The position numbers and the translations under genes are program-made. Positions 7,246 through 61,687 of a stretch of DNA of 64,000 nt are shown here, in pieces. The number at the start of each line of letters is the position of its first letter. The first letter of the stretch is position 1. Origin of the DNA: Nitrosopumilaceae archaeon (lineage in GTDB: Archaea > Thermoproteota > Nitrososphaeria > Nitrososphaerales > Nitrosopumilaceae); NCBI GenBank assembly GCA_965208905.1, contig OZ242365.1, forward strand, positions 1,888,001 to 1,952,000, read 5' to 3'. The notes below the pieces were generated by a model. That model was not told the origin of the DNA. It saw only the letters and a program-made list of their open reading frames with translations, and did no database searches.

Positions 7246-7579
7246 ATAATCTTTAAAATTCTTTTACATTAAATTTATTTTTGTGTGTATAATATTAATT
7301 AATAATTTCTGTATATTAAATGTGAAATTAATATCGAGCCAAATTTCGACTTGGACAATAATTATTTAATTTTATTGATATTTTTTTATAATAATTAATT
7401 ATATCATACTAAAAGTGCAAAGTGTTAGAGTCAGAACGCCAAATCAAAGTTGTGTTGCGCAGTGGGTTATGCTAAAGTATGACGTCAAATCAAAGATATT
7501 ATACAATTGCCGGTTGAAGATGATATCATTATGTATTATAGACAAAATATATAGTTCTGGGCTTTGTGGGTTATGGGAA

Positions 7580-8932
7580 TTATATACAAAAGTACACAGC
7601 TTCGGCTGTACACTCATGCCTTTTCTGACGACTTCGTTGTATGGAGTGGAGCATAGAAGGTGTTGGCTTGTAGTCCTCCTTATGCCCCGGCCGTCTTAGG
7701 ACGACGTTCCCCGCCGCCCTATACAGAATATTCCAGGCGGCATTGACATCCGCGTGGAATACCCTGGTACAATTAGTGCAAATGAATTTGTCGCGTGTGA
7801 CACGCGACTTAGCATCCACCGTACCACACACATGGCACGTCTGGCTCGTATATTTGGCCGATGCCCCCAACAGCGGTATGTTGTGCATCTCACACCACTG
7901 CGCAAGCTTGCGCAGGAACTCCCCAACATGGTTCTCCCGCATTGAACGGTTCATAGCGCGTTTGTAATTCCCGCCATGTGTGGTCATATCCTTTACGGAG
8001 AGCGATTCGACCACGACTGCGTCCATGCCATTAGTTATCTGCGCAATCGTCTGATTTATGGTGTTCGCAGCTATGTTGTTGGCCTTCCTGTATAGCCGCT
8101 TTATTTGATCATTCAATATATGCCACTTCCGGCCATGCCGTGTCTTGCGGTCGCGCAAACTCTTGAGAGCGTCAATCTCCCGCAGGATTGCTCTATGGCG
8201 GGTGTTGTGTATTGTGACGTTGCCGTCCGTATCTACCGTGACGGCGAGATGCTTGCCGCCCACATCAACGCCACGCATTACACCCGTAGTATGGTGCAGC
8301 TCGATCGGTATGCGTAACGCTATGTGCAGCTCAAACATGTGGTCGGACGGTTTGGTATGTTTAGTCACCTTCTTGGTGACATCGACTATCCTAAATGACC
8401 GCATGTCCCATGTTTTATAAATGGGTTTTGCGATCTCCACTGTACCGTAGCCGGAGATATGTACGGTGTGATCACCCTTCCGTACAGGCGGTGTAACGGA
8501 ACTAAGTATGATGCGGTCGTCTTTGCGGCGGTATGGCGCATGGCCGGAGTTGTCATCCATGACTCTCCTACATGCGACGGATGCATCTTGTATGGCGCCC
8601 CTGCCAAACACCATAGGCAAGTCAGATACCCATGCATGTTCAGCGCGCCACTCCGTAAGCTGCTTGAACATGCCGTACTTTAATGCTATCTTTGACGGCC
8701 CAAAATCATATGTATGGTAGTCATCGTCCAGCATACCTGATGTAAAATCCAGCTTGCCCGGTAGTTTGAAGGACTGCAGGATGTCCACTACCACCCTCTC
8801 CATATATTCGCCACCAAACAAATACTCTGATACGGCGCGGTTGTATGCATATCTTGACGCATGATTCGTGCGGTGCACCCACTCTGCAAACAACACATCC
8901 CTCCGTAGCGGTACCTTAACTATCCGTATCAT
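7580..8932 (-). CDS. tnpB: RNA-guided endonuclease TnpB family protein
   Basis: RuvC-I GVDVG, RuvC-II VVESL, zinc finger TSQTCHVCG..FICTNC, RuvC-III HADVNAAWNI. Confidence 0.93.
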   Translation of the reverse strand: MIRIVKVPLRRDVLFAEWVHRTNHASRYAYNRAVSEYLFGGEYMERVVVDILQSFKLPGKLDFTSGMLDDDYHTYDFGPSKIALKYGMFKQLTEWRAEHAWVSDLPMVFGRGAIQDASVACRRVMDDNSGHAPYRRKDDRIILSSVTPPVRKGDHTVHISGYGTVEIAKPIYKTWDMRSFRIVDVTKKVTKHTKPSDHMFELHIALRIPIELHHTTGVMRGVDVGGKHLAVTVDTDGNVTIHNTRHRAILREIDALKSLRDRKTRHGRKWHILNDQIKRLYRKANNIAANTINQTIAQITNGMDAVVVESLSVKDMTTHGGNYKRAMNRSMRENHVGEFLRKLAQWCEMHNIPLLGASAKYTSQTCHVCGTVDAKSRVTRDKFICTNCTRVFHADVNAAWNILYRAAGNVVLRRPGHKEDYKPTPSMLHSIQRSRQKRHECTAEAVYFCI

Positions 8933-8954
8933 AATATATAATACGGTATACTAG

Positions 8955-8962
8955 TATTTAAG
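8955..8962 (-). promoter_or_regulatory. Putative TATA box (CTTAAATA) for a leaderless tnpB transcript
   Basis: About 25 nt upstream of the ATG; the identical octamer lies at the same spacing before the second tnpB (60616-60623). Confidence 0.55.
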
Positions 8963-9209
8963 GGGAGTTGTATGGACGCGATCCGTGGTTCAGGCATTAA
9001 CTCTCAGAATCGGGGTTGTGTACTTTTGTATACGATTCCCAATATTATTGTACAAGGTGTATCGACAAGTCTGCCATGGAAGGTGTCAAGACACGGTGAC
9101 CTATAAGAATCTGTCAAAAAAGTGACCTGCACCAAACTTGACAACCATCTCCACACGAGGTTACCTTTTTGGCAATTCCTCACAGGTTACCATACATGTC
9201 TTATACCGG

Positions 9210-17776: not shown

Positions 17777-17953
17777 GATTGCCTTCTCTGCCTTTTTTGT
17801 GGGCTGTGACGTTATCTGCGCGTGTCATAACAGCGCGTATTTGACACAACTGCTATACAGTTGGACTTGTGCCCAATACAGCATGTATAGCTCAGCGACA
17901 TCTAGTACTAAACGTGACGTTTAATTACCAACTCATCAATATATTATCGTGTT

Positions 17954-40311: not shown

Positions 40312-40482
40312 GGTTCTGGGAAATCAACGGGACATGACATGTAGTGGGAAATTAGGGACATAAAAAATGAGGGATTAAGATGTTGATTCTGCGGCTGCTC
40401 GAATGAGGGTTAGGTACTTGCTATTGCCCTCGATAGTGATACCTGCGGCTTCCATGTCATGTCCCGTTGATTTCCCAGAACC
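40312..40482. mobile_element. 171-bp MITE with perfect 30-bp TIRs (GGTTCTG start, IS6-like)
   Basis: GGTTCTGGGAAATCAACGGGACATGACATG ... CATGTCATGTCCCGTTGATTTCCCAGAACC. Confidence 0.85.
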
Positions 40483-58887: not shown

Positions 58888-59275
58888 GGTACGTGTATAT
58901 CACTCGTGACATATAGATCTTGCGCCGTCAAATACGGGATCGGCATATGTCGCACATGACCAAAGGGTCCGGGCGACCGACTCTACCGTGGCGGTGACGA
59001 CCAACGTGCAGGCCGGCACCAGATACAGCAACATACCCAAGTCGGTTCTGGTAAAACTGGGCAACCCTGACCGCATCAGGTTCTCAATAAGGGGGGACGC
59101 GGTCATTGCAAAGGCGCCGACGGCTAGACAGTGAATACCAGAAGTTGGAAATAGCACCCACGTTTGCAGCAGAATCATGCGCGTGGGACTGTAACGTTAT
59201 TGGGTGGGTCGTCCCGACTGTAACAAACGGAGGGTCGTGTAACATCAGGGGGCGGGTACAATACTGCGCAATTTG

Positions 59276-60700
59276 TGAGCTAGTAACTAAACGTCGCGTT
59301 TAGAACCAGATGCCGCTGAGCGACAGATGTTGGTCATATGACCATCCAGAGGAGTTTCCAAGAGACGTTCATTGTCGGCCGGGTTTTGACGCCTAGCCTG
59401 GTGACAGCCTGTACCGGCCATCACGTCACCAACTACACTGGGAGGCGTAAGTGTCGCGAGATGTATCTTTCCTCTCAAGACCATTCCAGCCTTGTTTTGC
59501 AGTTCGTAAACGCCTTGAACGCGCTTACTCCACTGCACTATATAAAAAGCGAAAAGTATGTTGAATGCTGCATTTACGTCCGCATGACACGATACACCGC
59601 AGTTATGGCACCTAAACTTACTACCCTTGCGCCACGTGTTTGTACTACCACACATACAGCACTGTTTTGAGGTGTTCTTTGGGTTTACCTCGATATATTC
59701 TACATTATGTTGTAGGGATTGTTGCGCAATATGGTTACGCGCCTTGCCGCACTGACTTTGTCGCATCAATCTATTCTTGTTTTTCTGACCTTCACCTTTA
59801 CTTGTCATGGTTTTGAGATTCATACCCTCCATGATGATTTTATCACACTGTCTCATTAGTTTCTTGGAGAACTTGCGCATCTTGTCCATCTGTCGATTTC
59901 CCAACTTACGGTATATGCTGTTTAGTGTATCATGCAGTCCGCGCCACTTGTGGGAGTGAAGTTTGCAACGCGACATCTTTTTCTGTATACGCGCTATGTT
60001 GCGCAGTGTGTCTTTCTCGCGTAGTGTAAGCATAGCAATTGTACCATCGGACTTTCCCACAATAAGCGTGTGCTTGCCGCCCATGTCTATACCAGCATGT
60101 ACACCGGTACAGACGCGGTCCGGGACATGCTCGCGTATCGTTACATGTAGTTCAAACTGCCGTTCCTTATCAGCATGGTTCGTAACGTCTACAATCTTGT
60201 ATGATTGTGAGTCTGATGGTAGCCTACCTTTCTGTAATTTGAATGGAATACTACACTTTGGGAAGTATACTACATCACCTTTGGACTTTTTACCCAACGG
60301 CACACTACTATACAGGGGATAAACCTCCCTGCCATACCTCACATAACTACAGTCTTCCATCTTGTGACCTTCCCGTATGGCGCCGCGAGCCCAGGCCTGG
60401 GGGATTGTTCGGCATTTGGTGGCCATCTTATTGGTGTCAAATTCCGACATACCAGCACGACGAGCCTCAATTCCCGCATTGAGCCACATATGGGATTCAG
60501 AATACATTGAGTCAAAATATCGAGTGAGTTTGGTTGATGTCTTGAGACGGTACAGTAGAGTCCTAACAACGTACTTTTCGCCTTTATACTTCATGTGGTA
60601 TAATGAGTTCGGTGGTATTTAAGCGGTGTATTTGGTAGGTTTGTTTGCTCAACTAACTACAGTAGGCTATGATTGAACGCGACGTTTAGTTACCAACTCA
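59276..60700 (-). mobile_element. Solo-TnpB element bounded by 25-bp inverted repeats and a GCAATTT direct repeat
   Basis: 59276-59300 TGAGCTAGTAACTAAACGTCGCGTT vs reverse complement of 60676-60700 TGAGTTGGTAACTAAACGTCGCGTT (23/25); flanks GCAATTTG / GCAATTTA. Confidence 0.8.
59287..60594 (-). CDS. tnpB: RNA-guided endonuclease TnpB family protein
   Basis: GIDMG, IMEGM, TSKQCCMCG..FRCHNCG, HADVNAAFNI. Confidence 0.93.
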   Translation of the reverse strand: MKYKGEKYVVRTLLYRLKTSTKLTRYFDSMYSESHMWLNAGIEARRAGMSEFDTNKMATKCRTIPQAWARGAIREGHKMEDCSYVRYGREVYPLYSSVPLGKKSKGDVVYFPKCSIPFKLQKGRLPSDSQSYKIVDVTNHADKERQFELHVTIREHVPDRVCTGVHAGIDMGGKHTLIVGKSDGTIAMLTLREKDTLRNIARIQKKMSRCKLHSHKWRGLHDTLNSIYRKLGNRQMDKMRKFSKKLMRQCDKIIMEGMNLKTMTSKGEGQKNKNRLMRQSQCGKARNHIAQQSLQHNVEYIEVNPKNTSKQCCMCGSTNTWRKGSKFRCHNCGVSCHADVNAAFNILFAFYIVQWSKRVQGVYELQNKAGMVLRGKIHLATLTPPSVVGDVMAGTGCHQARRQNPADNERLLETPLDGHMTNICRSAASGSKRDV

Positions 60701-60947
60701 GCAATTTACCAAAATAGGGAGGAACGAGCACAAAAAGCACCAGAAGAAAAGGATCTGGTACAACAGCAGATGGATGGTTGAAATAATAATATCCTCGTTC
60801 AAGAGGCTACTGGGCGAGGTTCTCCGGGTGGTAAAACCTGAGTATATGATTATAGGGATTGCTACAAAGATAGCCGCGTATAACAAAACTCAAGACATTA
60901 TGCGCAAGGCCACGGCGTGAGGCGGACAGAACTCCGTCTCACGCGGT

Positions 60948-61373
60948 TTGGTATTCGCATGGCGACTGGACCGTCCAGATCGCGTCAGGTCACGAATTAT
61001 GAAACGCTGTCAGCCCACCGTAAATGACAAGCATAAGGGAGAGGGAGGCGCAAAGCCCGTATATGTAAAGTTTCCCGATCAGCCAGTCATGGAAGTGAAA
61101 TCCTGGACTGCCGTTCACACCAAAGCGATTGAGTGGTTGATTGATACCGGCAAAATCAGCACAGACGAGCAGATAACCATCAAGAGAGGATGGGTGTTGT
61201 ACACGTCAGATGAAGAATATGCAAAGAAGTTCTCCGCACATAAAAAGACTGGGCATGGGTGGTTTGAGTGCAATCGTAGTAGTGAAAACCATATCGATGA
61301 CATTACCAAAATATTTGAACATGCAGGTGTGGACATGGATTTCAAAATCACTATCCGACTAAATGAGGCTTAG
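60948..61373 (+). CDS. Hypothetical protein or fragment, resembling C-terminal DNA-binding domains of restriction-type enzymes
   Basis: VKSW......IEWL...G, GWFE.N.S; family assignment weak. Confidence 0.45.
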   Translation: MVFAWRLDRPDRVRSRIMKRCQPTVNDKHKGEGGAKPVYVKFPDQPVMEVKSWTAVHTKAIEWLIDTGKISTDEQITIKRGWVLYTSDEEYAKKFSAHKKTGHGWFECNRSSENHIDDITKIFEHAGVDMDFKITIRLNEA

Positions 61374-61687
61374 ATCTCTGCTTTCACTCTAGGCGCCTAT
61401 TACACAACAGGTATGATATTTGAAACCGCCCCCGGTATTCATATTCCATACCGGTCATGGCTAAGTCACAACTCTAATCAATAGATTTAAGCGGCGCGTA
61501 TTCAAAACAAAGAACCACATACAGTTAAGGCACATGTATTATCGGTAGAATCGCTTCAGAATTATACACGTTGTTTTCGTCAACGGTCGATATAAAAGCG
61601 TCCTGTTGTAATACAACGGCAGCGTCCGTATATGACAAGTTATGAGACGTTGCATTAAGTCGCAGGACCTGGCCAGAACAAGACAGG

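Follow-up and report, generated by a model that had tools for sequence, protein, structure and literature searches.

TnpB is the ancestor of Cas12, and its accepted rationale, the restoration of the excised donor, is tied to the scarless excision of the IS605 and IS607 insertion sequences (IS). Elements of the IS1341 type have no inverted ends, make no target duplication and depend on a Y1 TnpA transposase. The TnpB element analysed here belongs to a Nitrosopumilaceae archaeon (GCA_965208905.1, contig OZ242365.1) whose genome is a single contig of 2.21 Mb (45.6% G+C, 99.6% complete). The stretch of 64,000 nt that was analysed (genome positions 1888001-1952000) is called the window, and coordinates refer to it unless a genome position is stated. 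Like the IS1341 group of IS200/IS605, the element has a single tnpB of about 1.4 kb with a putative structured RNA at its 3′ end, and it is present in many diverged copies in a genome. Unlike that group, it has inverted ends and a target duplication, and its genome has no Y1 TnpA. Our reading, with a probability of roughly 0.68 for the statement as a whole, is that it is a non-autonomous transposon composed of TnpB and omega-RNA only, inserted in trans by a DDE transposase, for which an IS6-like enzyme is the most likely supplier.

Prokaryotic TnpBs carried by DDE elements are uncommon, although the kind is already known. Six DDE-associated TnpB branches (DDE-1 to DDE-6), all with inverted terminal repeats, have been described, together with solo TnpBs that have the same ends as transposase-bearing elements, implying mobilisation in trans (Altae-Tran et al. 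2023, PMC10691335). The main text of that paper names only IS630 (DDE-6), while a 2026 review lists ISL2, IS630 and IS1031 as DDE carriers (PMC13565253). The view of a first-pass annotation of this DNA, that terminal inverted repeats plus a target-site duplication are known around TnpB only from eukaryotic Fanzors, is outdated by the 2023 description. As in the DDE-associated branches of PMC10691335, the ends of our element are inverted and the 3′ end of tnpB is close to the element end (11 nt here versus a criterion of 250 bp). Unlike in those branches, a single TnpB lineage is found on two types of carrier in the same genus, and duplications and empty sites were observed directly. The element also resembles Fanzor1 (PMC3627910), in which a TnpB homologue is cargo of DDE transposons with inverted repeats and target duplications; unlike Fanzor1, which is eukaryotic or viral and of another protein lineage, it is located on an archaeal chromosome and encodes a typical short prokaryotic TnpB. 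IS6-like or IS1595 carriers of TnpB are not named in the main text of PMC10691335 or in PMC13565253, supplementary branch lists aside, and the papers found on TnpB with IS1595, or with the IS6 family in archaea, deal with other matters, judged by titles and abstracts. What appears to be new is the pair of carriers (IS6-like and IS1595), the archaeal host and a change of carrier inside a single TnpB lineage.

The element and its insertion site

The features of the locus are as follows (strand given where one applies):
59276..60700: whole element, 1425 bp, with inverted ends of 25 bp around a single intact tnpB
59268..59275: target-site duplication, copy 1, GCAATTTG; a single 8-mer in host homologues, and an X5 junction contig
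59276..59300: terminal inverted repeat on the tnpB 3′ side (right end), including the stop codon and the hairpin CTAAACG-N3-CGTTTAG
59287..60594, minus strand: intact tnpB (435 aa) whose product has the RuvC D-E-D triad and a zinc finger (open reading frame and profile matches)
59276..59495, minus strand: putative omega-RNA scaffold overlapping the tnpB 3′ end; motifs CTCCTCTGGATGG...CCAACATCTG, then the end repeat, then the flank
60611..60635, minus strand: promoter-like box CCGCTTAAATA, about 25-30 nt 5′ of the ATG, with a presumed promoter function
60676..60700: terminal inverted repeat on the tnpB 5′ side (left end), from repeat comparison and genome-wide end matches
60701..60708: target-site duplication, copy 2, GCAATTTA; flank comparison and X5 junction contig
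59208..61669, plus strand: host segment, apparently a defective IS4/IS5-type element, with a transposase C-terminal remnant split at 59275/60709

The inverted ends were identical at 23 of 25 positions and the flanking 8-mers at 7 of 8, confirming the repeats and the duplication proposed by the first-pass annotation; the stop codon of tnpB (59287-59289) is located inside the 3′-side repeat, again as proposed. The tips of the element are TGAGCTAGTAACT and TGAGTTGGTAACT (also compared as TGAGCTAG/TGAGTTGG; end type TGRGCTGGTAAC). The end type TGRGYTRGTAACTAAACGTCGCG was found at nine sites of the genome, every one of them an insertion end, compared to none for a reversed control, ruling out a chance origin of the inverted ends.

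The TnpB element is a true insertion with exact borders, as indicated by host homologues with a single 8-mer, by a contig that joins the two flanks and by empty sites of its paralogues in the sister genome G005. After in-silico removal of the element, leaving one 8-mer, the 1029 bp that remained were colinear over the junction with homologues at three loci of G009, in G004 and at genome position 2051664 of the same archaeon, and each of these homologues has a single 8-mer, e.g. GCGGTTCG, at the insertion point. In the public DNA run X5, from another sample, one contig joined 59267 to 60701, skipping the 1433 bases from 59268 to 60700 (7 letters common to both sides; shorter side 81 letters), while other X5 contigs spanned the occupied junctions (59183-59368 and 60524-60781). 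X5 was compared at 90% likeness and the empty form may come from a near strain. The whole 2462-bp segment 59208-61669 is absent from G005, with a 3-base TGG repeat at the junction, and consequently there is no direct empty site for this copy in that genome.

The G009 homologue is a 394-aa DDE_Tnp_1 transposase encoded on the plus strand, and window positions 60705-60884 match DDE_Tnp_1 weakly; by this homology the interrupted gene is the C-terminal remnant of a plus-strand IS4/IS5-type transposase. The minus-strand frame (...ILVNC-AVLYPP...) that removal of the element rejoins according to the first-pass annotation was rejected as spurious, since the colinear homology is to the plus-strand remnant. 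The 2462-bp segment has imperfectly inverted ends and a 141-aa open reading frame (60948-61373) without a Pfam match, and it looks like a defective IS4/IS5-type element.

The ends argue against an ordinary IS200/IS605 (IS1341-type) element whose palindromic ends mimic inverted repeats. Such an element would fit the hairpin within the ends and the public annotation of relatives as IS200/IS605 accessory TnpB. However, 11 non-palindromic bases are inverted at the tips, no common target motif was found beside the left end, and the explanation is contradicted by the 8-bp duplications and the empty sites. Moreover, Y1 TnpA (PF01797) and the serine recombinase type of TnpA that marks IS607 (PF00239) gave no match in the whole genome, while control searches were positive in 6 and 12 of 14 genomes respectively, so that the absence of TnpA stated by the first-pass annotation extends to the genome. 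We consider this explanation practically untenable.

Related copies, their ends and the TnpB module

The genome harbours 10 further near-full-length copies (73-83% DNA identity). Inverted ends were present in 9 of 12 copies examined and fall into four end types, named subA to subD. Among the seven copies with defined ends, the target duplication was perfect (8/8) in four (c376, c2209, c768 and c1379), 7/8 in two (the studied copy and c250) and 4/8 in one. Orthologous empty sites with one 8-mer were found in G005 for c2209 and c768 (flanks 95-98% identical), showing that both insertions postdate the split from G005; the c376 site was not clean in that genome. Paralogues with inverted ends and duplications of their own, and empty alleles (in G005, in the host homologues and in X5), both of which the first-pass annotation had advised looking for, were found. 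The subC copies (c394 and c402) have 54-bp inverted ends and no clean duplication, and testing the two for exchanged flanks gave a negative result.

Two further elements are bounded by subA ends, one of 714 bp with other cargo (duplication 7/8) and one of 38 bp (8/8) that is scarcely more than two 12-base tips. As these elements are without TnpB, the ends, and not TnpB, are the unit that is moved. The 714-bp element (genome 1954623-1955336) contains a 105-aa open reading frame, and its relative in G008 (locus L185) has an additional 231-aa frame of no known family behind the same end.

End type and interior were incongruent. The studied copy has subA ends, and its interior is nearest to subB copies (83% and 81%, the former its nearest paralogue overall), compared to 77% for the other subA copy. 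This incongruence also speaks against the idea that TnpB itself, with its RNase-H-like RuvC fold, is the transposase of these elements. In favour of that idea, the genome has many TnpB-only elements, with about 65 genes from six families, and subB and subD have no identical-ended transposase-bearing element in the genome. Nevertheless, the same ends bound TnpB-free elements, and DDE elements with the same tips and an 8-bp duplication exist, making this explanation very improbable.

The state of the ends raises the question of whether the element is a dead relic, immobile now though moved by a DDE enzyme in the past, with TnpB kept for the host or for another role. The mismatches in the ends (23/25) and in the duplication (7/8), a nearest paralogue that is just 83% identical and the report that most TnpB clusters are immobile (PMC10691335) speak for it. 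By contrast, X5 holds both occupied and unoccupied versions, the reading frame and catalytic residues are intact, and c2209 and c768 were inserted after the split from G005. We regard a relic as unlikely.

Matches to the TnpB lineage came from 3 of 10 genus genomes (E≤1e-40) and, across the order, from 2 of 201 sampled genomes (E≤1e-30). A large protein collection yielded 41 proteins at E≤1e-10, two of them named, both as TnpB of a Cenarchaeum sp. metagenome-assembled genome. A search for related loci gave only one close metagenome-assembled genome (two loci) and two distant Bacillales matches. Of 10 genus genomes, two had the subA end and one the subB end. When metagenomes were scanned twice for the end motif, there were no matches and then 38, all chance matches without tip context; the nearest two were within a gene of a contig with 57-58% G+C.

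The 435-aa protein scored 121.2 bits against NCBIfam guided_TnpB (cut-off 100) and matched Pfam OrfB_IS605 and Cas12f1-like_TNB (PF01385, 39.5 vs. 30.5; PF07282, 54.3 vs. 26.3). Alignment to solved TnpB chains (9yyg / 8bf8 class) demonstrated that the three RuvC acidic residues seen in the first pass are kept (AGIDMG, IMEGMN, HADVNAA), together with a CxxC...CxxC zinc finger. A box related to the promoter-like one, (C)GCTTAAATA, was present in 10 of 11 copies of the source genome, in seven of them as the exact ACCGCTTAAATA.

The final 220 nt or so of tnpB are conserved in all 16 family copies from two genomes, in the order CTCCTCTGGATGG, hairpin, CCAACATCTG, second hairpin, and then the variable end repeat and the flank. 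We infer that this region and the right end encode an omega-RNA whose guide would be the duplication plus flank; the end repeat would then be a guide-adjacent tail. Identical contigs covering 59349-59489 and part of the reading frame (59773-60039) occurred in the RNA libraries X7, X8 and X11, a weak hint, since contigs from RNA libraries are no proof of transcription and the parts they leave uncovered are uninformative. Other results leave the omega-RNA putative. RNAalifold predicted helices with some compensatory pairs in the 16 copies, but this covariation falls within coding sequence; single-sequence folding gave a z-score of only -1.96; the region had no Rfam match; and no consensus for a target-adjacent motif was found in the 6 nt upstream of the duplication in eight copies.

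Some other loci carry pieces of this 3′ region. The inverted ends of c376 (genome 376972-378456) are 114 bp long, so that part of the putative omega-RNA tail is duplicated, outward-facing, at its 5′ end too. At 17800-17935, a 136-bp remnant contains two tnpB 3′-end (omega-RNA tail) segments tail to tail, with one subB and one subA end, both outward-facing, and without target duplication. A long tandem run of the pentamer CTACA is located immediately 3′ of one TnpB copy (genome positions about 1691330-1691400).

Candidate transposases

The genome is rich in IS, with two rve families, IS630, IS110, IS1595 and six TnpB families. Two candidate partners were discarded: IS256, as no PF00872 match was found in the genome, and the rve-type families, whose duplications are 4 bp in one and about 15 bp in the other. 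Thirteen genes passed the Pfam DDE_Tnp_IS240 cut-off. Their products (355-498 aa) combine SWIM and zinc-ribbon N-terminal parts with an IS240-type DDE core in which the motifs WRxDE, SDxAxNF and NNQMES are invariant (13/13), and in NCBIfam they match IS6 best, along the full length of the model. In 8 of these 13 genes, a (T/G)GNNCTG(T/G) tip was present within 200 nt of the stop codon. A local search of the 700 bp around the IS6-like genes gave no inverted ends, because the elements measure 3-17 kb; starting from the termini later revealed the ends.

The first 80 bases of the 714-bp element resemble the left end of a large repeat, element (f) (genome 140415-157841, 17.4 kb, ends TGGGCTGGTAACTTATCCGCGC). 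The outer 13 bases of element (f) are identical to the subA tips, and the inner part is like subB at 12 of 13. An IS6-like gene at genome 156690-157757, one of those passing the DDE_Tnp_IS240 cut-off (92 bits against NCBIfam IS6, cut-off 125), is located 84 bp inside its right end, making this gene the best single candidate for the supplier, judged from sequence. The right flank of element (f), TGTCAAAA, recurs at the left end of a second copy. Element (f) carries as cargo what resembles a defence island (a DUF499 protein, a DUF1156 methylase, a SNF2/ResIII helicase and a SIR2-like protein), and its 8.3-kb left part recurs, 99.9% identical, at genome 1116873-1125137. Of an autonomous DDE transposase with the same terminal repeat, which the first-pass annotation had advised looking for, a candidate was found: element (f) has the outer 13 bases of the subA type, while the tips of the studied copy differ from them at 2 of 13.

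Other IS6-like elements have related ends. Element (e) (genome 18695-22054, 3360 bp, tip GGTTCTGTCAAG) has a perfect duplication, GAATTTTT (8/8). Type (c) (tip GGAACTGGTGCATC) occurs twice, flanked as X-[IS]-Y and as Y-[IS]-X, and TnpB copy x_740 has about 40 nt of left end in common with it. Type (a) has the tip TGAACTGTCCCAT and matches the subC ends; types (b) and (d) are also related, (d) with 171-bp MITEs (miniature transposable elements with inverted repeats). One such MITE is located in the window (40312-40482, IS6-like ends GGTTCTGGGAAATCAACGGGACATG), with at least eight copies in the genome, one of which, at genome 347829-347999, is flanked by an 8/8 duplication. The two direct copies of type (c) (genome 1337692-1341644 and 1851328-1854929, with methylase cargo) read GTCCGTTG-[IS]-AAAATAAC and AAAATAAC-[IS]-GTCCGTTG, as a copy-in cointegrate spanning 513 kb would be expected to read if left unresolved.

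The repeats made by IS6 elements are 8 bp long, and the element ends have a GG tip together with cTGTt and caaa motifs (PMC7986276); the end of IS26 is GGCACTGTTGCAAA (PMC8477213). Our elements are like IS6/IS26 in the 8-bp duplication, the tip pattern NGNNCTGT and the MITE derivatives (PMC7986276; PMC8477213). The subD end GGCACTGTCAAATC is close to the IS26 end and to the IS6 pattern, which the tip of element (e) fits too. Canonical IS6 elements are 700-890 bp long, encode a transposase of 213-254 aa and almost never carry cargo (PMC7986276; PMC8477213). Unlike these, the IS6-like elements here have transposases of 355-498 aa and are 3.4-17.4 kb long with methylase or defence cargo; the studied element, also unlike canonical IS6, lacks any transposase and ends in a TG tip.

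From the ends and duplications of the paralogues, the empty sites and the 13-base tip of element (f), the studied element is almost certainly a DDE-type insertion mobilised in trans, as the first-pass annotation had proposed. Assignment of the supplier to the IS6-like family of this genome is less secure and is, in our judgement, probable. The IS6-like enzyme was ranked first because of the shared tips, the 8-bp duplications of IS6-like elements and the fit of subD to the IS6 pattern. Several further points weigh against this assignment or against a copy that still moves. The studied element contains no transposase, and the link of any transposase to its ends comes from sequence comparison. 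Its two tips each differ from the element (f) tip at 2 of 13 bases, and the inner parts of the ends differ as well; the tip is TG, not GG, and CTGT is degenerate. The IS6-like proteins reach 92-101 bits against the NCBIfam IS6 cut-off of 125, and their elements, 3-17 kb long with cargo, are unlike canonical IS6. The degenerate ends and duplication may mean that the studied copy is now immobile. Finally, the closest relatives in G005 have IS1595-like ends, and consequently the partner could be a different one.

An IS1595-family DDE transposase was our initial reading of the partner, demoted to a rival once the IS6-like ends were found. IS1595 is active here: 8/8 duplications flank four of four elements (ends GGGAATTATA), and one pair of copies is 99.9% identical. 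TnpB families 2 and 9 have the tip GGGAATTATATAC in common with these elements, and perfect 8-bp duplications were found in 8 of 16 copies of family 2. The G005 relatives, 70-74% identical in amino acids to the studied TnpB, have GGGAAT... ends and duplications of 8/8 (TATAGTTA) or, in two cases, 7/8, and IS1595 transposases are present in all 10 genomes of the genus. By contrast, the ends of the studied element are not of the IS1595 type: its tip (TGAGCTRG...) agrees with the IS1595 tip at only 4 of 10 bases. Among 30 IS1595 loci of the genus, 14 had inverted ends (eight GGGAATTAT, four CGCTCAT and two doubtful), and the TGRGCTG type was absent. For the studied copy an IS1595 partner is improbable, if slightly less so than a relic, and the IS6-like enzyme remains our preferred supplier.

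A second TnpB family (450 aa), with perfect 8-bp duplications in 8 of its 16 genome copies, has a copy at 7575-9040 between IS1595-type ends, GGGAATTATATAC. A TnpB-like family of 518 aa (13 copies, e.g. genome 239554-241169) has ends GGTTCCTCCCGCAAAGTCGGGTG that resemble IS6 ends, with 8/8 duplications in 4 of 13; a further family of eight copies has the GGTTCCTCCCGCAAAGTCGGGTG-type end on one side only, and no transposase bearing ends of this type was found in the genome.

Mobility of the TnpB cargo and its meaning

Under the IS6-like reading, a DDE transposase supplied in trans would act on the tips, making staggered cuts 8 bp apart. Movement may proceed by IS6-type copy-in through a cointegrate, which the X-[IS]-Y...Y-[IS]-X pattern fits. 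TnpB and its omega-RNA could then cut unoccupied alleles, favouring retention or homing of the element. As the same lineage is found on IS1595-type ends in the sister genome, the TnpB module behaves as cargo moving between DDE carriers. The strongest form of this model, in which TnpB/omega-RNA is interchangeable cargo of the unrelated IS6-like and IS1595 families within one archaeal genus, the transposase-binding ends are grafted onto the omega-RNA 3′ end next to the guide and TnpB is a true homing nuclease, is tentative, and we consider it rather doubtful.

The 3′ end of the putative omega-RNA tolerates swapping of the ends that the transposase binds, and archaeal IS6-like elements can be large cargo transposons with methylase and defence genes. 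IS6-type elements are thought to copy via cointegrates and never to excise. If this is true here, the donor-restoration rationale for TnpB would not apply, and TnpB would instead convert unoccupied alleles, which coexist with occupied ones in a natural sample. The system has three useful properties: exact borders with a natural presence/absence polymorphism, a nuclease lineage on two DDE families, and one of these families expected to be replicative. Together they make it testable whether TnpB helps transposons that leave double-strand breaks or transposons that never leave.

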